Source: a virus. From it: DNA of 16,144 nt. The stretch is taken from the UHGV virus genome UHGV-0251712. The stretch is one strand, 5' to 3'. A program made the translations under genes and the position numbers. The notes below the pieces were generated by a model, which had not been told where the DNA came from, did no database searches, and saw only the letters and a program-made list of their open reading frames with translations. How positions within the stretch are numbered: position 1 is the stretch's first letter; each line of letters opens with the position of its first letter. Positions 2,600 to 16,144 of the stretch are shown here, in pieces.

Positions 2600-3205
2600 G
2601 AACCGCCATGAACAAGGGTTTCATGATTTGTGATTTTAGTTTGGTACGCAATTTGGTACACAACACAATTTTCACTTCAGCGGGTAGTCATCAAACTCAC
2701 CATAACGAGCATCGTTAATGATGTATGTGATCACCACAAACATCACATCTGGACTAGTTCCGCTTTCATGCGCAGGTATTTGTTCACGCCTCCCTTTCTG
2801 CAAATCATAAAGATGAGATTTTGGGGTTTTGGGATATCTTTTATCCGCAGTTCTCTATCCATTATGCAAACCAGTAATGAACCATCACCGTGTGATAGTG
2901 AGGCATCTGCCACGATAAGCGCAGAGAAATGATGCAGTGGTGGGCGGACTGGATTGATGAGAAGGTGGAGTGAACCACCTTAACCACTATCGAAGAGCAC
3001 AAAGCCTTGCAATCCAGTACAAAACTTTGTTTGTCTCATCAACTACCGCAAGTATCGATCGATGGAGCCTTGGATGATAGAATAAATTCGTAGCACTTTT
3101 TTTTAAAGTATCATCTCGCTCATGGTTACGTGATAGAAAAAGGACAAAATAATCTTAAATTTAAAAGCATATAAATCATACAAATAAAATTGTGGTGGGT
3201 GCGTA

Positions 3206-4204
3206 ATGTCTGATATTCGACAAAATAGAATAGAGTTAAATGAAGTGCATATAGCTCGCTCCATGGCTATATTTCTAGTTGTTTTACTTCATTCTTCAGG
3301 TGCTTTTTTTATGCAGTTTGGAGATCATTGGTGGATTGTTAATTTATACAGTTCTTTTTCAAGGCAGTGTATAGGTCTTTTTTTTCTTATCACTGGATAC
3401 CTATTTTATGAAAAAAACATAAACCCAACAGCACACCTAAAAAAAGGAGTGTCGAGATTGATAATACCATTCATATTTTGGTGGGTGGTATATTATATCT
3501 ACAATACAGAGATTAACAACAAATCATATAATTCTATATTTCAACCAAGTGAGGTACACCTTTGGTTTATGTATGCATATATTTGTATATATATGTTTTT
3601 ACCAATAATTTGCAACTCATTAAAACACATACCAACATATTACATTTTAATTATTGTAAGCATGCTTTTTTACTCAAATTCCATTGTCCCTGTAGTTGAT
3701 AAAACGATAATGAAGGTAACATGGTTTGATGTAAAACTAGTGTCTGAAAATGGGATATATATTCTTATTGGGGCAATAATAAGGAGATATAACGATAAAA
3801 TAAAAAAATGCAATGCAGTGATACCATTGGTGATTATTGTTATGTCGTGCCTGTTAACATCAATGGCATCTAGTTGGTGGTCTGAAATAACAGGCAGGCC
3901 TGAGCAGTTTTTCTTTAAAAATACATCTCCACTTGTATTAATATGTGTTATTTCTTCATTTACATTATGCATGTCATACTCAAAAATAATTAGCAAAAGA
4001 TTAATGAATTTATTTACATCAATATCAAATGTTTCATTTGGTATATACTTCGTCCATTTCTTTTTTGTTAGAGAAATTAGACTCGGGTATAATCAAGAAA
4101 ACGCATATTTCATGATACCATTGCTAACAATCATTTATTTTTTAATGTCATATTGCATATCAATAATTCTAAGCAAGATCCCTTTGCTTAGAAAAGTAAT
4201 ATAA
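3206..4204 (+). CDS. oac: acyltransferase-3 family integral membrane O-antigen O-acetyltransferase (Sf6 Oac-like), AT-rich serotype-conversion gene
   Basis: 332-aa polytopic membrane protein with very low GC (about 30%). The N-terminal ..IARSMAIFLVVLLHS.. motif is typical of acyltransferase_3. It lies stop-to-stop convergent with the tailspike gene, exactly as oac does next to gene 14 in Sf6. The symbol is given by context and size, not by verified sequence identity. Confidence 0.65.
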   Translation: MSDIRQNRIELNEVHIARSMAIFLVVLLHSSGAFFMQFGDHWWIVNLYSSFSRQCIGLFFLITGYLFYEKNINPTAHLKKGVSRLIIPFIFWWVVYYIYNTEINNKSYNSIFQPSEVHLWFMYAYICIYMFLPIICNSLKHIPTYYILIIVSMLFYSNSIVPVVDKTIMKVTWFDVKLVSENGIYILIGAIIRRYNDKIKKCNAVIPLVIIVMSCLLTSMASSWWSEITGRPEQFFFKNTSPLVLICVISSFTLCMSYSKIISKRLMNLFTSISNVSFGIYFVHFFFVREIRLGYNQENAYFMIPLLTIIYFLMSYCISIILSKIPLLRKVI

Positions 4205-6451
4205 TTATGGATTGTTAACCTTCCATCTTTTATCATAGTAATGCAAATATCCCTGAGACGTTAGTGTCATATGGACAATCGCTTGGGATATTTGCGCGTT
4301 CTGAAAATTAACTCTAATAAATACTTGAGTGCCAATTGTTATTTTTGATACAGATATCCCGTCAAGAGTCTTGTCTCCTTGTATTTTATTAACCCAAACA
4401 CCTGACGAAGACAAGGTTGCCTGATCCTTTCCGCTTATACTAAATATAATTTTACCTCCTGTTGCCAGTGAGGTGTTTACTCCATTTTGAGATATTGGAA
4501 TTATTGTAATTTCACCAGCAATGAAAACACCATTTTTGTATTTAGATACCTCACCTTGTTCACAAATTAAAATATCAATACATCTACCCCATGGTACTAG
4601 GATTGTTGCATTTTCAGTTTTTACTTGTGGATATACAGCTGAAACACCTGCAGATTCGAAATTTTTTGCTGATAAAACAACTCCGTCAGATCCATTTCTA
4701 AATCCCATTCCTGTATGATCACCGTATGTCCTTCCATGAGAGATGAATCCTCTTACATACTCTTCGGATACTGCGCTACCAGTGGTTTCCTTCTGAAAGA
4801 TAAATGTTTCACCAAAAGAAAAACCACGACATTGGTATTGGCTCTGATAATTTTCTGAGTTCTTAAAAAAGGAAATGCCTTTATATGCTGTTACATAGCC
4901 AGATCTAAATTGAACGGAAACAGGGGTTGTTTGTTCATCTGGAGGTAACTCCACAAAATGTGTAACATTTTGGCTGTTTGATTCCTGTAACCATACAGAA
5001 ACACCATCTATAATCATGGTTGAAAATCTACTGTTTATTTCTAACTCAGAAAAATCAAGAACATGATCACCTGTAACACCCTCAACTCCAAACCCATCAA
5101 TACTTAAAGACCTGAACTGATAGAATTTATGCGGTAACTCACAACCATCAGCTGCAATATTCATTGCGCTAGTGTACATTAATGGGTAAGGACTTATAAT
5201 TGGTTCATATGTTTCTCTATCTATTGCAGCCCCCCAAAGATACCCAACATTACAATGTCTTGCCCAGTTGGAAGAGAATGTAGTAGATGTGCCAGCCAAA
5301 CCGAAACCATAGATACAATCATATGCTTGGTTGTTTGTAACATTACTGACAAAGCATGATAAGGGAAGTGCAAATTTATAATGTAGAAATATGTTATTTT
5401 TAATATCATATTCACTACCCCCGCCAAAGGTTTGTGTTTGACCAGAAATGGCCAATGGGCTACCTGAATATTCATCGTCAGCGTTGCGAAAACACATATT
5501 CTTTACTTTAAGATTGTGCCCCCAACTTCCCATAACAAAACCACCACTTCCTGATGTATAAACAATACTTTTTTGTGGATTAATCCCATATAGATTTAGA
5601 CTAATCCCTTCCCATCTAAACTGGCTAATGTCAATTTGAGTGTTACCAATATATATAGGCTGGTCTATGAAAACAGGAAGTTTAGTTAGATAAGCTTTAT
5701 TAAGTGCTAATCCATCATTTGTTACACCTGTTAAATCAACGCCCCCCATGCTTGGCGCTCTAGGATACCCTGTGGCCTGAATAGTACTCCAGTCAATATA
5801 TGGAGCATCCATCCACGCTCCAAACATACGTGGTGTTACGTACCCCTTACCTTGAAGATCACGTTTCCAGCGTTTACCACCCACAGTGACAATGACCATG
5901 CCGTTATCATCTGCAGAAGTAGAATCTGTGAAATCGGCCACAAACAGACCACCACCAGTATCACCTGATACTGTCGGCTTCATGCCTGTAGTGTGGAAGT
6001 CGACGAAAATCTTTTGCTGATCTCGCTCAGGCTCAATTGTCCTTAACATTGCTATATCAGGGCATGTCCCGATGTATTTAAGACCGTCTTCCCCTGATAG
6101 AGATACTTTAAGCTGATCAGGATCATATTTAAGAACATTCGGAAAATAGAACTGCTGTGCACCATATGCATCATAAACAGCCATAGAATGGCCTTGCACA
6201 GTTACGAACTTGGCAATCTGTCCGTTATATACCGGATATCCAGCAGCGTTAATGATGATTGGTTGCGAAACAGGAACGCGAGAACCGTCTTCATTCTCCA
6301 CATAAACCTGAATCTGGTTTTCAGGATTTACCGGGTCAGTGTCAATTTTACCGATATAAATTTTGCCATTGGCTACGGCTTTAAAAGAACGAGCCATAGT
6401 GAAGAGTTGCGAAGGCATGCTTACCACAACATTTGCGGTGATATCTGACAT
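4205..6451 (-). CDS. tailspike protein: Sf6/HK620-type N-terminal head-binding domain fused to a distinct (unidentified) receptor-binding/depolymerase domain
   Basis: Residues 1-115 ([56 protein letters not shown]...VLKYDPDQ) are about 95% identical to the Sf6/HK620 tailspike N-domain and about 70% to P22 gp9. The true start is the second ATG (6451), which has a GGAG 7 nt upstream. The remaining ~630 aa do not match the Sf6 or P22 catalytic domains as remembered. Confidence 0.85.
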
Positions 6452-6572
6452 TTCATTGCTCCAGACGAATGATATGATGCAACCATGATGTGATTGCATA
6501 CCGAAATGGTACTATTGAGTATTTATCCAGTAGGTTACGATGCCATTCCACCCAACTGGTGAGGCATCAAGG

Positions 6573-9316: not shown

Positions 9317-10648
9317 TTACTGCCCCAAAGATGGAAGATATCCGTAGCGATTAATGAAGTCGATTGACAGCTCGGGGTGCTGCTTCAGGTAATCTATAGA
9401 AGCCTGAGGCGCTTCCACTCGCTTGATACCGTTTTGCTGAACGTACTTACCAACCGCCTCATTACGCTTCTGGTTGAGCGTGTTCAGGATGACGCCAGCG
9501 TTGCGACGAAAGGACTCCTCGCTCTGCGAGTTCTGCAGCGAACCAACAGCCTGGTCGAGCTTTTTGCCCTCGGCATCAGAAAGTGCGCCCATGCCTCGCA
9601 TGGCCTGAACCGCTGTCAGGTATGCTTGGGATTTAAAGGTATCAAGTCGTGCCTGAGTGTCTGCAGCCTGTGAGCCTGGAACGTTGGGGATTACTCCACG
9701 TAAGCCTGTAATGCTCTTAAGTGAAGGAGAACTAACGATATCGTTCAGAGTGAACATGCTGGTTGTGAGGGTGTTGATGCCGTCTTTGTAGCCATCATTT
9801 AGCGCTTGCTGCTTCTGCTGCAACTGCTGGTTGTTGGCTGCTATGCGGCTCTGTATTTCCTGGCGCTTCAGGTCGTTAGTTTCTGCTGATAGCATCCGGT
9901 CAAGGCGCTTATTTTCGTTGTTAATGCGGTTTGTTTCTGCGTCCAGATTAATGCGCTGCTGACCTAAATTCGCCTGGATATCTTGCCCGCGCATTGTGAT
10001 TGCCTGATTCCGAGCGGCGGTTTGCGAATCCAGATCCTGACCGCGCATGGTAACCTGGCGACCCTGCATTTTATCCTGTAGGTCAAAGTATTTTTCGGGT
10101 CCGAGACTGTTCATCCCCAGGTGATCGACAAATTCGCCGAACTGCCGCGGGTTCTGTTGGTACATCTGAGCGACATCCTGAGGATTAACGCCAACACGAG
10201 CTAACTCACCGGCGTTGTTTTGCAGCCATGATTGCATTGCTTCTGGAGACGATGACGCAAGGCGTGCGCCAGCCGCTAAGGTGCCGATAGAATTACGCTG
10301 ATCTTCATCAATGAATCCCATGCCTTTACGAACGGATTCAATCTGTTCTGGATATTGAGTAGCCAACTGACGCAAAGCACCGCGATCACCAGACGCATAA
10401 GCATTAGCGTATGCCTGCTGAAATTCTTTCTGCCGCTGAGCCTGCTTTTCCTGCTGAAACACCCCCGCAATACCTGAAAGGCCTTGCAAAGCAGTCAGCC
10501 CAACATTGTTAGCGCCTGAACGCTCAATATCATTGTTCTGCCTGATAAGCTGAAGCGTATTGCCGATGTCATTTACGCTCGGAGCGTTTGAGTTGACGCC
10601 GCCGATACCAGCCAACAATCCGCCGTTTGTTCCTTGCCAAGTAGCCAT
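9317..10648 (-). CDS. DNA ejection protein (P22 gp20 / Sf6 gp12 position), Q-rich coiled-coil protein
   Basis: 443-aa protein, called by position between the gp7-like stub and the gp16-position gene. It contains internal near-repeats (TMRGQDLDSQ / TMRGQDIQAN). AAGGGG lies upstream of the ATG. Confidence 0.55.
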   Translation of the reverse strand: MATWQGTNGGLLAGIGGVNSNAPSVNDIGNTLQLIRQNNDIERSGANNVGLTALQGLSGIAGVFQQEKQAQRQKEFQQAYANAYASGDRGALRQLATQYPEQIESVRKGMGFIDEDQRNSIGTLAAGARLASSSPEAMQSWLQNNAGELARVGVNPQDVAQMYQQNPRQFGEFVDHLGMNSLGPEKYFDLQDKMQGRQVTMRGQDLDSQTAARNQAITMRGQDIQANLGQQRINLDAETNRINNENKRLDRMLSAETNDLKRQEIQSRIAANNQQLQQKQQALNDGYKDGINTLTTSMFTLNDIVSSPSLKSITGLRGVIPNVPGSQAADTQARLDTFKSQAYLTAVQAMRGMGALSDAEGKKLDQAVGSLQNSQSEESFRRNAGVILNTLNQKRNEAVGKYVQQNGIKRVEAPQASIDYLKQHPELSIDFINRYGYLPSLGQ

Positions 10649-10657
10649 GATTACCCC

Positions 10658-10835
10658 TTAAAACAACGAGCCAAGCAATCCGATACCAGCACCAATGCCA
10701 GCGCCCCAAGGCGTTGATGTTCCCAAAAGGCTGGCAAGACCTGCACCGGCAATCGCACCAGACGTGCCACCGCTAATTGCAGTCTGAAGACTTGATGGTT
10801 TAACCAAAGAGTAGTTGGCTTTGGGGTGACGTGAA
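10658..10835 (-). pseudogene. 3' terminal fragment of a gp7-like ejection protein gene (glycine-rich hydrophobic C-terminus), truncated by a deletion
   Basis: Only about 60 codons remain, ending ..GAIAGAGLASLLGTSTPWGAGIGAGIGLLGSLF immediately before the gp20-position gene. The frame runs upstream into the ssb fragment with no plausible start. P22 gp7 is about 229 aa. Confidence 0.35.
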
Positions 10836-11267
10836 GTGCAGCTGCACGACGGCAACCTGACAATAGCAACGTCAGAACAATGGCGAGATAAAAATACTGG
10901 CGAGCAAAAGGAATTGACTGAATGGCATCGTGTTGCTGTATCCGGGAAACTGGCTGAGGTCGTGGGGCAGTATGTGAAAAAAGGTGATCAGATTTATTTC
11001 GAGGGAATGCTGAGAACCAGAAAGTGGAAAGACCAGTCAGGGCAAGACCGTTACACAACCGAGGTTCATGTCGGAATTAATGGCGTGATGCAAATGCTTG
11101 GCGGCATTGGCGACAGCAAACAACAAGCAGCCAGCAGGCAATCACAGAAGCCACAGCAGCAATCATCACCAGCACAACACAACGAACCTCCGATGGATTT
11201 TGACGACGATATACCCTTTGCACCAGTAACTCTCCCCTTCCCTCGTCACGCTATTCACGCAATTTAA
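10836..11267 (+). pseudogene. ssb: single-strand DNA-binding protein gene lacking its first ~35 codons, with a 15-codon extension after the DDDIPF tail
   Basis: The translation ..[27 protein letters not shown]...[12 protein letters not shown]...MQMLGG...[12 protein letters not shown] aligns with E. coli SSB from residue ~36 onward. A TGA lies 3 codons upstream in frame and there is no ATG. DDDIPF is followed by [15 protein letters not shown] instead of a stop. Confidence 0.85.
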
Positions 11268-12052: not shown

Positions 12053-12742
12053 ATGAGCAAGATTGCCTATCAGGCACTGCGTGAAAAGGCAGAGAAAGCA
12101 ACGTGTGGTGTGTGGTCGCTCGAATATGGAGAGGGCCGATTTGATGGTGATGATGCGCTAATTCATCGTGAAGTTGCTGGATATATTCCCATTTGCAGAA
12201 TTGAAGGAGCGCATCCTGAAAGCGGTTTCGATGAAGATTTCCAAATGGAACAGCAGGCCAATGCTGAATTCATCGCAGCAGCCAGTCCAGCTACCGTGCT
12301 GGCACTACTGGATGAACGGGAAAGAAACCAGCAGTACATCAAACGCCGCGACCAGGAGAACGAAGATATTGCGCTAACGGTAGGGAAGCTGCGTGTTGAT
12401 CTGGAAGCCGCAGAGAAGCGCAACGCAAAATTACAAAGCGAGAATGCATACATCCGCAACAGGTACAAAGAACTGGACCTATTAATCGGGAAAAACATTC
12501 TGGTCATGCAGGCTGCCATTATCGAATGGCAATCTACTGGCGACGCTAAAAGCGGACTGGCATGGATTTATAACACACTGTTTGGCCCAGGCGAATTGCC
12601 GGACGAATCTGAGAAAGATGCTCAGGCCTACTTTAATCGCAAAAATGAACCGATTGACGAAAAGCTTATGGAGCTTCACAAGTGGTTTTGGGAACAAAGT
12701 GAAGCCGAGCGTGTCGCTGGCATTCGCATCAAAGGAGAGTGA
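12053..12742 (+). CDS. coiled-coil phage early protein, possibly Ead/Ea22-like family
   Basis: 229-aa protein with an acidic N-terminal half and a central coiled coil (..KRRDQENEDIALTVGKLRVDLEAAEKRNAKLQSENAYIRNRYKELD..). Resembles 'ead/Ea22-like' prophage proteins as remembered; not verified. Confidence 0.45.
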   Translation: MSKIAYQALREKAEKATCGVWSLEYGEGRFDGDDALIHREVAGYIPICRIEGAHPESGFDEDFQMEQQANAEFIAAASPATVLALLDERERNQQYIKRRDQENEDIALTVGKLRVDLEAAEKRNAKLQSENAYIRNRYKELDLLIGKNILVMQAAIIEWQSTGDAKSGLAWIYNTLFGPGELPDESEKDAQAYFNRKNEPIDEKLMELHKWFWEQSEAERVAGIRIKGE

Positions 12743-12951: not shown

Positions 12952-13398
12952 ATGACCACTATTACCAAAGAACGTATTGAATTGTTCATTAAAAATCCGC
13001 TTGAAAACGGGCTTACTCGTGGCGAACAAATGGAACTGGCACGAATTGCACTGGCATCACTGGAACGCGAACTGATTCGCCACGAGCATGCCAAATGGTC
13101 TGACTCCACATTTGGCTGCGTTGGCCCCATTGGTCCACTGAAACACCTCTCAAAAGAGACACTGGAAGCCGCAGCCGAACCAGACGATCTTAGCGAGTGG
13201 GCTGATATGCAGTTTCTGTTGTGGGATGCACAGCGCCGTGCTGGCATCAGCGATGCTGAAATTACCGCTGCTATGGAAGATAAATTGAAGATCAACATGG
13301 AGCGCCAGTGGCCTGAGCCAAAAGATGGTGAGCCTCGCTTGCACATTAAAGAACTCGGCAACTCTCCGGTAATTCCGGATGGTTCGGATGATGGTTAA
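12952..13398 (+). CDS. MazG-like all-alpha nucleotide pyrophosphohydrolase-type protein (prophage 'dATP/dGTP diphosphohydrolase' type)
   Basis: 148-aa protein with KETLEAAAE...DLSEWADMQFLLWDAQRRAGI, which fits the ExxE-(x12)-ExxD metal-binding pattern and helix arrangement of MazG/DUF550 proteins. GAGG RBS. Confidence 0.45.
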   Translation: MTTITKERIELFIKNPLENGLTRGEQMELARIALASLERELIRHEHAKWSDSTFGCVGPIGPLKHLSKETLEAAAEPDDLSEWADMQFLLWDAQRRAGISDAEITAAMEDKLKINMERQWPEPKDGEPRLHIKELGNSPVIPDGSDDG

Positions 13399-13547
13399 CC
13401 ATTTTTGATGTAAAAACATCCTTCTCTGAGGGCTTGCTCCTCAATAAGTTTGGTTTTATAATTACGCGCAATGAAGGTGGGCGGTTCGCTACTATACAAG
13501 AGGGGTGTACCCCGCGAACTTAACCCACCACCACTTTCCTCTCTACT

Positions 13548-14195
13548 ATGAATTGCAAATCAATGACCAGAAAATATGCCATCATGATCGATGCTGGTTT
13601 TTTGCGTGCAAAATTAGGCACAAAAGATAAGCCAATCGATGCGGAAGTAATCAAAGTATTTGTAGAAAAACTAACAAAAAGGCATGAACTAGAAGGCATG
13701 ATTTTGCACCGTGTTTATTATTACGATGCAGAGCCGCTTACCGGAATACAGACGCATCCGATTAGTGGAGAGAAAATTGACTTCTCTGAAACAGAAGTTT
13801 CTAAAAGAAATAAAGCCATGCTTGATGAGTTGAAAAGAACTCCTTTTTTTGCAGTAAGACTTGGAGAGACAAACTTTCGAGGATGGAAGGTTGACCCATG
13901 GGCATTAAAGAGCAGTGACTCTAAAACTTCTTCCATTAATGCCTACAATGTTAAGCCTAATGTTCAGCAGAAAGGCGTTGATATGCGTATTGCGTTAGAT
14001 ATGTCATCAATGTCATTAAAAAAACAGGCAGATATATATGCTTTGGTGACTGGTGATTCAGATTTTGTTCCAATTATAAAATTTGCTAGGAAAGAAGGCC
14101 GACAGATTTTTCTATACACACTGGGACATAGTGTCAAGCAGACGATGTATGAACATTCCGATTTGTTAGTGCCAGATACCATGGATAAATTGTGA
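13548..14195 (+). CDS. NYN-domain (LabA/PIN-like) predicted ribonuclease, low-GC cargo gene
   Basis: 215-aa protein with the N-terminal ..YAIMIDAGFL.. (first Asp), the central QQKGVDMRIALDM motif, and the GDSDFVP motif (ALVTGDSDFVPIIKFARKEGRQI) diagnostic of PF01936 NYN domains. GC is clearly lower than the flanks. It is preceded by a 150-bp non-coding leader. The start may be the internal ATG at 13563. Confidence 0.7.
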   Translation: MNCKSMTRKYAIMIDAGFLRAKLGTKDKPIDAEVIKVFVEKLTKRHELEGMILHRVYYYDAEPLTGIQTHPISGEKIDFSETEVSKRNKAMLDELKRTPFFAVRLGETNFRGWKVDPWALKSSDSKTSSINAYNVKPNVQQKGVDMRIALDMSSMSLKKQADIYALVTGDSDFVPIIKFARKEGRQIFLYTLGHSVKQTMYEHSDLLVPDTMDKL

Positions 14196-14374
14196 TTGGA
14201 GCTAGGAATAGGTTAGCCGCGCCTTAATAGATGATCCATTCTGGCAGAAAAAGAACACAAAGAAGTAGCCTAAGTGCCCCCAACTGCATTTACACCCAGG
14301 CCCTCATTGCGGGTCTTTCTATTTACAGAGATGGCTGAGCAGAACGCCAAGAACTGACAACCTGAACGAATACG

Positions 14375-14400
14375 AACCCGCCTAGTGCGGGTTTTCTTTT
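14375..14400 (+). terminator. rho-independent terminator (AACCCGC-CTAGT-GCGGGTT + TTTTCTTTT)
   Basis: 7-bp GC-rich stem followed by a T-run. Confidence 0.6.
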
Positions 14401-14405
14401 ATCTG

Positions 14406-14430
14406 AACTCGCTACGGCGAGTTTTGTTTT
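14406..14430 (+). terminator. second, near-duplicate rho-independent terminator (AACTCGC-TACG-GCGAGTT + TTTTGTTTT)
   Basis: Same architecture as the upstream terminator with one stem transition. The T-run ends 1 nt before the next ATG. Confidence 0.55.
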
Positions 14431-14742
14431 ATGGAGATGATTATGGCCTGTTCAACATTCAACCATTTAACGTTACAGAAATACCAGCCAGACCCTGAAG
14501 ATTTATGCTCACTGTGTGGCGGAAATCATGGTAAAGCCGCCATGATCGAATGTAAGGACAAAATCCACATTTGCCTTAATTGCGTTGATGTCCTCGTTGA
14601 TATCAAAAATGAGAGAGAAGATAAAAAGCGTAGCGAGGCTATTCGCGCATTAGATTCATGGATGCGAGATGGGTATAGTGCTGCGCAAATTTATGACTTC
14701 GCAATATCAAAAGGCGAAATACCAGGAGTGCGCATCGAATAA
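14431..14742 (+). CDS. small C4 zinc-finger protein (about 100 aa; probable start at 14443, MACSTFNHL..)
   Basis: CSLCGG...CLNC motif pairs. GGAGA lies 5 nt upstream of the ATG at 14443. It is followed by a terminator at 14784-14808. Confidence 0.5.
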   Translation: MEMIMACSTFNHLTLQKYQPDPEDLCSLCGGNHGKAAMIECKDKIHICLNCVDVLVDIKNEREDKKRSEAIRALDSWMRDGYSAAQIYDFAISKGEIPGVRIE

Positions 14743-14823: not shown

Positions 14824-14928
14824 ATGACCGATACCAGCCTGATTCCTGAGAAAGAAGTGATGAACAAGCTCGGTGTTTCATCACGTCAGACAATCTGGAA
14901 CTATACCAAACGGCACGGATGGATATAG
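14824..14928 (+). pseudogene. AlpA/TorI-family excisionase/regulator gene truncated after codon 32 (34-aa product ending ..KRHGWI*)
   Basis: GGAGA RBS. MTDTSLIPEKEVMNKLGVSSRQTIWNYTKRHG matches the N-terminal HTH of AlpA/TorI/Vis proteins (..LGVSRSTIYR..K.G.FP..). It breaks exactly where the 36-bp int-derived repeat begins (14917). Confidence 0.5.
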
Positions 14929-15189
14929 GTTACTGGCGAACACATGATTTCAGAAGAACGCTTGTTACACGTCTGTCCGAGATGAATGTCGAGCCTCATG
15001 TTACTGAGCGAATGCTCGGTCATGAACTTGGCGGGATAATGTCCGTATACAATAAACACGATTGGATAGAGGCTCAGCGCAAAGCGTATGAGCTTCACGC
15101 TGATAAATTGTTCTGGCACATCAGGAGCATTTCTGATTAACGCCACCGTTAAGTGAAATCATGTGTTCGCCAGTAACCTATATCCATCC
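14917..15189. repeat. 36-bp perfect inverted repeat (14917-14952 and 15154-15189) flanking a 201-bp segment
   Basis: GGATGGATATAGGTTACTGGCGAACACATGATTTCA is present on the plus strand at 14917 and as its reverse complement at 15154. The flanking bases differ. Each copy encodes GMDIGYWRTHDF of the integrase. Confidence 0.9.
14919..15140 (+). pseudogene. int: tyrosine integrase C-terminal catalytic fragment (73 codons: box II HDFRRT, LGH, catalytic Tyr in ..MSVYNKH..)
   Basis: MDIGYWRTHDFRRTLVTRLSEMNVEPHVTERMLGHELGGIMSVYNKHDW.. contains the HxxR, H and Y catalytic elements of phage integrases. There is no N-terminal DNA-binding or core-binding part on this strand. Confidence 0.8.
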
Positions 15190-16144
15190 CTCCCCTTATT
15201 CTATTTACGAATCGGTTGGCTGCAGCGATGCTGATCGGTTTGTTTATGTCTTCTCCAGGGAAAAGAACATCATTGTACGTTGTCATGGCCTTATCGAGGA
15301 AAGGCTTAATTTGTTCGAAGATTGGACGGCGGATAACATTACCCATCTTGCTATGCTCTTTCGGTACGGTCCATACGTTGTCCAGCAGGTCAAATTCTGT
15401 CTTTGTTGCCAGCCTAAGCTCTGAGAGCCTCGCCCCCCACAGCATAAGCATCTGATGAAGGAGCTTATTTGACGTAGACGCACGGCTTCTTTCAATAGCA
15501 AGCCAAATCTTAGCCAGTTCGTGATACGACAGTACCCGATCCCCTACCTCAGCGCGGGAGCCGAAGTCCCTTGGCTGGATGCTCATAATTGCGCAACTAT
15601 CTATCAACTGACGCCGCATGCACCAACTAATTGCTGATCTTAGTTGACTTAGCACCTGCCTTGCTCGGCGTGGATTATCTTTTTCTTCTTCGGTAAGCAG
15701 GTCAACCCATTGCTTAACCGTGATAGAAGATGCCGGACGATTAGGAAAGGCGTCATGCATGCGCTTCATAACCGTTGATCGGTAAAGTGCCTGGGTCTTT
15801 TCTCTGAGAGTTGTAGAGACGTAGTTGTCGAACCAGTAGTCGAGACACTGGGCGACCGTCATGGAGTTCTCCACCTTCTCTTCAAAATAAGTGCGTGGAT
15901 CCGTTCCTGAGAAATAGAGCTTTCGCAAGTCAGCAGTGATCTGTCTGGCATCCTTCAAAGACAGGGATGGGTATCGACCAAGCCCAAGTCGATTAGGCTT
16001 GCCATGCCAGCGATAGCGGTACTGGAACTGGATGACCCCCTTCGGTGAAATTCGTACGCTGAGGCCATCGGCATCAGCCACTTCTTGTGGGCCCGAATAT
16101 GGTTTACCATAAATAGTACGCAGTTTTGTGTCGCTTATAGCCAT
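15149..16144 (-). pseudogene. int: P4/DUF4102-type tyrosine integrase N-terminal 331 codons (arm-binding and core-binding/early catalytic region), ending ..GYWRTHDFT* just before the second catalytic Arg and the Tyr
   Basis: The N-terminus ..LSVRISPKGVIQFQYRYRWHGKPNRLGLGRYPSLSLKDARQ.. is typical of P4-like integrases (IntS/IntA family). The ATG is exactly at the window end. Together with the plus-strand fragment it would make a ~404-aa integrase if the 201-bp segment were inverted. Confidence 0.85.

Follow-up and report, generated by a model that had tools for sequence, protein, structure and literature searches.

Ribonucleases (RNases) commonly control their own synthesis through their own transcripts. 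The leaders of rnc and rne in Escherichia coli and the 3′ untranslated region (UTR) of Regnase-1 (ZC3H12A), an NYN/PIN-like protein that cleaves a stem-loop there, belong to such self-acting enzymes. RNA and endoribonuclease are also paired in type III toxin–antitoxin (TA) systems, whose antitoxin RNAs are highly variable, and phage genomes carry morons, insertions composed of a promoter, a gene and a terminator, as exemplified by bor and lom of lambda and the morons of HK97. Here, we describe a locus that resembles each of these in part. It lies in UHGV virus genome UHGV-0251712, a stretch of 16,144 nucleotides (nt) that was analyzed as a whole and is called the window below, and consists of a gene for an NYN-domain protein, a predicted RNase, together with a structured 5′ leader RNA. 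The RNA element is supported by covariation and strictly associated with the NYN gene, and the gene has no conserved protein partner.

Results

The gene and the leader element occupy the following positions, given in coordinates of the window.

13548–14195, + strand: open reading frame (ORF) of the NYN-domain RNase (activity predicted), 215 amino acids (aa) in its longest form, 210 aa from the probable start at ATG 13563
13476–13529, + strand: conserved structured 5′ leader RNA element of 54 nt with three stems, defined by alignment, covariance model and covariation
13476–13481 with 13524–13529, + strand: stem P1
13483–13489 with 13514–13520, + strand: stem P2
13490–13501, + strand: asymmetric internal loop, UACUAUACAAGA
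13502–13505 with 13510–13513, + strand: stem P3, enclosing a freely varying loop at 13506–13509

In aligned copies of the locus, the leader block is nearly invariant where identity of the coding sequence is just 76–79%, and the loop sequence AU(A/C)CAAG stays nearly invariant over more than 50% divergence of the protein. The stems change in a coordinated manner: the element that precedes the 61%-identical NYN gene of E. coli A14 carries compensatory changes in P2 (U-A to C-G) and P3 (G-C to A-U), and among 46 distinct sequences compensatory double changes occur in 14 of the 17 pairs. In the same set, 94.6% of the cells are paired, against at most 48% when the partners are slid, and none of 500 shuffles reached the observed covariation. 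RNAalifold recovers the helices from the covariation alignment, and P2 and P3 from a structure-blind MAFFT alignment. On the sense strand G·U pairs far outnumber A·C pairs (about 45 versus about 6–8 cells, counted by hand from the pair tables) and UUCG loops are frequent, indicating that the folded molecule is the RNA of the gene's own strand; P3 varies in length. A U-run (at least 6 in 8 nt) follows immediately after P1 in 35 of 80 copies of the motif (∼44%), giving the shape of a terminator, and is missing from the window copy.

Within the proteobacteria and their phages, the element was located with two covariance models, R1, which was made from the phage copies, and a second-generation model, R2. 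R1 matches lie on the sense strand immediately 5′ of chromosomal NYN homologues of 43–53% identity in hosts that include Arenicellales, Pseudomonadales, Methylococcaceae, Nitrosomonadaceae and Zoogloea; with R2, 54 of 80 proteobacterial genome loci show the element directly 5′ of NYN, as do the phage lineages whose identity is at least 40%. Altogether, covariance-model matches stand directly upstream of NYN on the + strand at 50–65 loci, with one copy per locus. All 16 exact-pattern matches in 2.9 million viral contigs precede NYN genes, and in E. coli genomes the leader was found solely before NYN genes, including that of A14. In one proteobacterial metagenome-assembled genome (MAG; L111, where L numbers denote loci of the collection), two Rfam matches above the gathering score (3407–3469 and 5405–5467) flank the leader and NYN unit: a DUF3800-IX RNA lies ∼450 nt upstream of it, and ∼800 nt downstream there is a fluoride riboswitch.

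We also scanned metagenomes for the loop consensus without regard to genes. This pattern selects intact motifs and gave 31 matches, of which 20 are genuine, about half of these standing before NYN genes, and ∼10 are partial by chance, so that the raw count is unusable without the covariance model. Orphan leaders, those without an intact NYN gene, were seen on contigs L188, L189, L193, L194/L205, L195, L199, L201/L211 and L206, where the full-length motif scores 54–74 bits with R2. A vapB/vapC-like pair follows the orphan leader in L201 and L211, L189 has two copies 1.3 kb apart on either side of a DUF4160/DUF2442-like pair, and the copy in L194 ends in a perfect T7 terminator. Several leader copies occur within one metagenome assembly.

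Three other identities for the leader were rejected. A leader peptide from ATG 13472 is incompatible with a 1-nt indel in L019 that shifts the frame and with the absence of this ATG from chromosomal leaders; because the nucleotides stay conserved while the indel breaks the frame, conservation is at the level of RNA. As for a tRNA or tmRNA mimic, ARAGORN finds none and the CCA-like tail is not conserved. Integron attC sites lie 3′ of a cassette ORF, have RYYYAAC/GTTRRRY cores and fold on the bottom strand; the present motif is always 5′ of NYN after the promoter, shows the sense-strand G·U excess and has no visible GTTRRRY core. Rfam 15 contains no match to the leader at E ≤ 1 for the window and six other loci, the sole match in the region being Trp_leader (E 0.76) on a terminator of the phage backbone, and literature searches on NYN in combination with prophages, defense, TA or structured RNA returned no characterization of the NYN family or the leader motif. 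The motif and its coupling to an RNase thus appear undescribed (no Rfam family, none in literature searches).

The NYN gene itself had been recognized in the original prediction from three motifs, and these are present in the 215-aa ORF as MIDAGF (residues 13–18), QQKGVDMRIALD (140–151) and TGDSDFVP (168–175). Profile search upholds the NYN/LabA assignment, with a match to Pfam NYN (PF01936, LabA-like) at E 1.6e-11 over residues 129–191 (45.3 bits against a cut-off of 24.2), a domain also present in all 120 homologues among the matches listed. The protein matches the function-unknown family phrog_5783 over its full length (E 1.1e-53, residues 9–208 on profile positions 3–218 of 246), as do the homologues in phage ev099, Streptococcus phage Javan85, E. 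coli A14 and Campylobacter pTet. Structure prediction agrees: an AlphaFold model from 49 homologues (pLDDT 91.2, pTM 0.85) has a PIN-like α/β fold nearest to solved NYN structures, and a PDB sequence search with the protein gave no match. Invariant across the 49 homologues are D15, D145, D151, D170, S171 and D172, along with several basic and aromatic positions; the acidic residues among them (D15, D145, D151, D170 and D172) we take, from what is known of the family, to lie in the active site and bind the catalytic metal. Comparison with copies at 87% DNA identity gives a dN/dS of ∼0.05, a sign of purifying selection. The Pfam and PHROG matches, the confident fold, the invariant residues and the low dN/dS all argue for a functional, selected gene of an NYN-type nuclease, with RNase as its predicted activity. 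We know of no characterized member of this NYN subfamily.

Homologues and most annotations by the Prokaryotic Genome Annotation Pipeline (PGAP) begin at the second ATG (13563), which yields 210 aa. PGAP starts are inconsistent, however, with 203 aa in E. coli KTa005 (L001, 16186–16797) and 186 aa in A14 (L090, 4171–4731); alignment backs the 210-aa form for both, and the L090 ORF then starts at 4099. The gene is AT-richer than its surroundings, as predicted, with a GC content of 0.379 for the ORF and 0.406 for the cassette described below, versus 0.47 on both flanks. PADLOC-DB 2.0 has no full-length defense model for the protein, and the partial matches are confined to the catalytic core: the NYN model at E 2.3e-5 (residues 139–187) and the HEC-09 model at E 2.5e-4 (residues 134–183).

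Leader and gene form part of a larger unit, whose limits and signals are as follows.

13357–14323, + strand: mobile NYN cassette (∼970 bp), delimited by the segment shared with E. coli L003/L004 and IMG/VR L012–L022
13434–13462, + strand: predicted sigma-70-type promoter, −35 TTGCTC at 13434–13439, 17-nt spacer, −10 TATAAT at 13457–13462
14298–14325, + strand: the cassette's own terminator-like hairpin, AGGCCCTCATTGCGGGTCT (14298–14316) followed by TTTCTATTT, from a terminator scan
14328–14441, + strand: phage-backbone junction with two similar intrinsic terminators (14374–14394 and 14405–14424), outside the NYN cassette

The 1032-bp stretch that was originally singled out occurs at 99% identity in 7 of 5426 complete E. 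coli genomes, carried by P22-like or lambdoid prophages at ybhC/attB-lambda, argW/dsdC or sbcB. E. coli loci L001 and L002 share window positions 12952–14441 (a MazG-like gene and NYN) and differ in the downstream gene. L003 and L004 share 13357–14813/14920 (NYN and a gene for a 103-aa protein); their upstream genes differ from those of the window, with a truncated ead preceding the segment, which begins at 13357. In the IMG/VR prophages L012–L022, only 13357/13362–14323 is common, at ∼87–90% DNA and 96–97% protein identity, and the flanks are otherwise unrelated. As this is the one segment shared by the E. coli and IMG/VR copies, it defines the conserved unit. Its left edge falls 37–42 nt within the 3′ end of the upstream ORF and its right edge just past its own hairpin terminator.

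Three placements of the cassette were found in phage operons: the ea region (PL operon) in the P22-like context, including the window; the nin region (DnaB/ead on one side, NinB/NinG on the other) of L015, L018 and the circular Klebsiella phage pCDI231-42.6; and the tail region, between the DUF6246 tail chaperone and tape-measure genes, in L019, L020, L023–L028 and E. coli A14. In every phage context examined, the NYN gene is co-oriented with the surrounding operon. In other P22-like prophages the same E. coli slot holds the gene for DNA polymerase III theta, which, with the presence of the cassette in so few E. coli genomes, confirms the expectation that NYN is variable cargo. K. pneumoniae pCDI231-42.6 (L218, NZ_CP077781.1) is typed as a non-mobilizable plasmid of 42.6 kb; its nin genes, Q-type antiterminator, holin and lysozyme give it the look of a lambdoid phage genome in circular form. 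The NYN protein encoded there is 95.7% identical and the theta gene lies directly 3′ of the cassette, so both alternative cargos of the E. coli slot stand there in tandem.

Transcription from the cassette promoter is predicted to start at ∼13469–13470. The promoter hexamers and their spacing are kept in L012, L018, L019, L020 and L023 while the spacer sequence diverges, and 36 of 63 lineages have a promoter-like site (at least 8 of 12 matches) equally far 5′ of the RNA element, compared with 6 of 126 control segments. This fixed distance places the RNA element at the very 5′ end of the mRNA. A stricter promoter scan of the window missed the site. At the other end, the hairpin is kept and stronger in L015 and L018 (GGCCCGC ATT GCGGGCC TTT), and L019 and L020 instead carry another terminator immediately 3′ of the stop codon. 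The occurrence of the cassette in varied operons, with a terminator hairpin at the end of each version, points to the anatomy of a moron; with its own predicted promoter and terminator, deviant GC and presence/absence polymorphism, the cassette can be classed as an autonomous one.

The noncoding DNA on either side of the gene was only partly as first described: the leader (13399–13547) is 149 bp, close to the predicted ∼150 bp, but the conserved promoter and the RNA element within it had been overlooked, and the trailer is 235 bp rather than ∼180 bp. Terminator-like hairpins are abundant in this region (9 sites versus 2.2 expected). Two terminators said to be near-identical and to close the NYN unit in tandem do exist, but they are ∼74% identical with a gap, Tandem Repeats Finder (TRF) detects no tandem repeat over 13300–14500, and they lie in the backbone, beyond the cassette's own hairpin. 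Most of the 1074 E. coli genomes hit by the query match it in 14328–14430 and nowhere else. This part follows the theta gene among the matches listed (30) and is absent from IMG/VR cassettes; it reads as a backbone junction common to alternative cargos. The idea that the two terminators are the repeat of an RNA antitoxin was rejected on the same ground, that they are backbone sequence present in most of those genomes with the NYN gene absent, and a structured RNA in the trailer was rejected on a fold z-score of +0.39.

The NYN subfamily comprises 405 clusters at E ≤ 1e-30, almost all of them single-domain proteins of ∼200–240 aa. Its gene is present in 227 of 185,579 species representatives, and most members are chromosomal and outside phages. 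Synteny of the chromosomal units is absent among the 6 species of Arenicellales and the 3 of Rariloculaceae that were compared, and two NYN copies occur in one MAG. Members also occur on 134 Campylobacter conjugative plasmids and in lysogeny-type positions, adjoining cI in phage ev099 and, in Javan85, flanked by int and the repressor. No neighbor is conserved. All-against-all clustering of the flanking ORFs of 35 phage lineages gave no cluster in more than 6 of them, the most shared looking integrase-like (6 of 35) and cI-repressor-like (5 of 35), and a Pfam census of 148 neighbors at 37 chromosomal loci found no conserved partner among 145 different families; apart from three DDE transposases and three PIN genes, these are housekeeping genes of scattered kinds.

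What the original prediction took for a prophage is a heavily deleted remnant with a rearranged integrase. The window runs from host sbmC/dacD (564–2334) through an O-antigen acyltransferase, a P22-type tailspike, mnt/arc and two ejection-protein genes to a junction at ∼10650–10853, then through a 5′-truncated ssb, abc2, ead/Ea22, a zinc-ribbon ORF and a PF04447 dATP/dGTP pyrophosphohydrolase gene to NYN, a gene for a 103-aa phrog_3680 protein, a truncated xis-like ORF and the integrase. Immunity, replication, lysis and head genes and PL are missing. At the deletion junction (10649–10853), the start of a P22 gp20-like ejection-protein gene (− strand, ending at 10648) abuts ssb without its first ∼90 bases. 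The integrase region (14824–16144) is rearranged relative to the otherwise 98–99% identical prophage of E. coli H9Ecoli (L004): the 3′ end of the integrase gene recurs in inverted form at 14917–15153, 36 bp (encoding MDIGYWRTHDF) have been duplicated into an inverted repeat, and a loss of ∼62 bp has taken away, among others, the end of the xis-like gene. As a result, the integrase ORF (15149–16144, − strand) is truncated before its catalytic C terminus. This arrangement is found in no complete E. coli genome of the collection and could be a real inversion or an assembly artifact.

Three further features of the window deserve mention. The C-terminal half (residues 118–214) of the Ead/Ea22-like protein (12053–12742) matches the PADLOC model "DpdH" at E 1.2e-36, probably owing to a shared domain rather than a Dpd system. 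The 103-aa protein (14431–14742; phrog_3680, E 6e-69) has a weak likeness to the ClpX-type C4 zinc finger (E 0.015) and is encoded just before xis in several P22-like prophages, NYN present or not. The very AT-rich block at 3000–5700 (GC 0.26–0.38), with an Acyl_transf_3 O-antigen acyltransferase (3206–4204) and the receptor-binding part of the tailspike (4205–6499, − strand), is probably a serotype-conversion or receptor module of foreign origin.

Discussion

The strict association of a structured leader with an RNase gene raises the question of what the RNA does. The leader RNA probably controls the NYN RNase. The fuller reading that we favor, which we hold tentatively and at a little under an even chance, is that the locus is an autonomous moron whose RNase regulates itself via the leader and possibly excludes superinfecting phages or competing elements. 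The unit consists of a predicted sigma-70 promoter, the 54-nt three-stem RNA, the gene of a stand-alone NYN (PIN-like, metal-dependent, predicted) endoribonuclease and a terminator, and travels as a block between temperate phages, with related units residing in proteobacterial chromosomes. Most likely, the NYN protein would bind or cleave its own leader, and negative feedback could act on mRNA stability, block the start site or, in lineages where a U-run follows P1, end transcription prematurely. A potentially toxic RNase could in this way be carried with no protein antidote. In a lysogen, including the PL-less remnant, the cassette promoter would provide low constitutive expression, and the RNase would act on RNA in trans, for which the exclusion of superinfecting phages or competing elements is the most plausible benefit to the phage. 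We favor autoregulation because the loop hardly changes while the protein diverges widely, the pattern to be expected where a conserved partner reads the site, because the element lies in cis at the 5′ end of the mRNA, and because self-regulation is common among RNases. A defense role in lysogens is plausible given the moron architecture and the placement of relatives in lysogeny modules.

Several observations weigh against this reading. Autoregulation by the NYN protein is argued from analogy, and the −35 hexamer of the predicted promoter agrees with the consensus at 3 of 6 positions. No leader was detected in NYN relatives below ∼40% identity (Firmicute phages, ev099 and Campylobacter plasmids), so leader control does not extend to the whole family. 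Of the 20 genuine metagenome motifs, about half, representing 7 independent cases, precede a 7- to 20-codon NYN remnant or no NYN at all, some with a perfect terminator, and these orphans fit an RNA with a role of its own equally as well as decay. The P22-like context is co-oriented with the PL operon, suggesting that NYN is also made early in lytic growth. The PADLOC models match just the catalytic core of NYN, and weakly. Finally, the only NYN defense candidate assayed, HEC-09, gave no protection (bioRxiv 10.1101/2024.01.29.577857); since the group NYN.COG1432 is in addition listed as function unknown in the Pfam/PIN classification (PMC5499597), the initial statement that a solitary NYN gene has no assigned function stands.

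The chief competing reading is a type III-like TA or abortive infection (Abi) system, which we consider unlikely. Here, the leader would be released as a small RNA, by termination at P1 and the U-run or by processing, and would neutralize NYN in trans; upon a stop in transcription, as when a phage takes over the cell or the element is lost, the RNA would decay and the RNase would be unleashed. The order of promoter, structured RNA, terminator in some copies and RNase gene mirrors toxIN, and the U-run directly after P1 in 35 of the 80 motif copies would supply the termination. The persistence of RNAs at truncated or lost NYN genes in the 7 independent cases, some by the vapBC-like and DUF4160/DUF2442 pairs, and the several copies in one assembly also speak for it, as do the solitary, non-syntenic units, occasionally two per genome, and a family that is found on phages and conjugative plasmids and for which no protein antidote was found. 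Against it, two features that define type III systems, tandem RNA repeats (none by TRF) and a ToxN/AbiQ fold, are absent, and the window copy lacks the U-run terminator. The loop is nearly invariant across distant homologues, whereas antitoxin RNAs of type III diverge strongly, and the orphan copies may be decaying loci picked up by a scan that selects intact motifs.

Somewhat less likely still is a leader that senses something other than NYN, as a riboswitch-like aptamer or a host-factor site would, with NYN being a physiological RNA processing or turnover gene borrowed by phages. Conserved unpaired nucleotides in an asymmetric internal loop between covarying stems, with a P3 of variable length that often ends in UUCG, are typical of ligand- or protein-binding RNAs. 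Chromosomal copies lie among ordinary housekeeping genes (the 145 Pfam families), and comparative work has tied bacterial NYN genes to tRNA and rRNA maturation genes (PMC5499597), which counts for a physiological role. The gene is, however, rare among species representatives, and its lack of synteny even within one order argues against a core housekeeping role; we rejected a housekeeping gene on the absence of synteny in both Arenicellales and Rariloculaceae. In addition, metabolite riboswitches seldom keep to one gene family as this motif does, and we identified no alternative structure that could serve as an expression platform.

We regard it as improbable that NYN serves the lytic cycle of its carrier or counter-defense, being expressed early from PL, or from PR or late operons elsewhere, and degrading host or competitor RNAs or the RNA components or signals of immunity. 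Its position in the P22-like early-left operon, beside the anti-RecBCD protein Abc2 and the dATP/dGTP pyrophosphohydrolase and in the same orientation, would suit such a role, as would co-orientation with the operon in all phage contexts examined. A gene driven purely by its operon would nevertheless have no need of a conserved promoter and terminator of its own, and the cassette occurs in early, middle and late operons, so that no consistent timing emerges. Moreover, most family members are chromosomal and outside phages, and NYN has been kept intact in a remnant without PL. A two-component system with a neighbor, for which the original prediction put forward the MazG-like pyrophosphohydrolase (12952), the 65-aa zinc-ribbon protein (12744) and the 103-aa zinc protein (14431) as partners or antitoxins, is very hard to sustain and was rejected on a comparison of seven E. 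coli contexts with the IMG/VR copies. All three are adjacent in the window, but the cassette has the MazG-like gene beside it in L001 and L002 only and the 103-aa gene in L003 and L004 only, leaving each lacking in half of the E. coli contexts, and the 65-aa gene is outside every shared segment. The copies in IMG/VR, in the nin region and in the tail region have none of the three, and none matches a PADLOC model.

A self-regulated RNase moron remains the reading that we prefer. LabA-like NYN proteins are a large bacterial family without an assigned role, and in the present case one compact subfamily behaves as a mobile single-gene unit. The structured RNA tied to it across Gamma- and Betaproteobacteria and enterobacterial phages offers a testable handle, namely whether the leader is bound or cleaved by the protein or acts as its antidote. 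It is possible, if doubtful, that leader and NYN constitute an unrecognized mobile RNA–protein module, either a TA or Abi system with an RNA antidote built on a PIN-like/NYN nuclease or an RNase under a new sensor RNA, whose single-gene cassette would spread through temperate phages, plasmids and the chromosomes of proteobacteria. An RNA-controlled toxin or defense gene of this kind, if true, would be a new architecture for phage-borne immunity and for TA types. For annotation, several PGAP starts of NYN genes are wrong, the MazG-like and zinc-ribbon neighbors should not be linked to the NYN gene, and the "tandem terminators" should be read as the backbone junction.

Comparison with known systems

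The NYN protein is a new member of a known, uncharacterized family. It has the same domain as other LabA-like NYN proteins (PF01936; NYN.COG1432, Matelska et al. 2017; 2QIP, which is VPA0982; 5YAA, the NYN domain of MARF1) and differs from them in ∼60 extra residues, in β-hairpin inserts, over the minimal domain of ∼150 aa, and in forming a full-length family of its own (phrog_5783) on mobile elements with a structured 5′ leader dedicated to it; the solved NYN structures are just 15–18% identical to it in sequence. HEC-09 (Hma-embedded; Payne et al. 2024, preprint) is likewise an NYN/MARF1-like protein for which defense was proposed from context. It has an extra N-terminal domain, and its PADLOC model matches 50 catalytic-core residues of the window protein.

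As a genetic unit, the cassette resembles morons in its own promoter and terminator, its deviant GC, its presence/absence polymorphism and its position between conserved genes, including the classic one in the tail region. Unlike the classic examples, it carries an RNase gene behind a structured leader, and the NYN unit is found in chromosomes outside phages as well. With toxIN, cptIN and tenpIN it shares the order of promoter, noncoding RNA, terminator where present and endoribonuclease, the occurrence on phages and plasmids and the lack of a protein antidote; it departs from them in its single RNA copy, its NYN/PIN-like fold, its conserved loop and a terminator that is seen in ∼44% of copies and not in that of the window. 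As with rnc, rne and Regnase-1, the transcript of the RNase itself contains a conserved structured RNA, and gene and RNA are strictly inherited together. Recognition of the leader by the NYN protein is proposed by analogy with these enzymes, and the NYN leader motif is unrelated in sequence to theirs.

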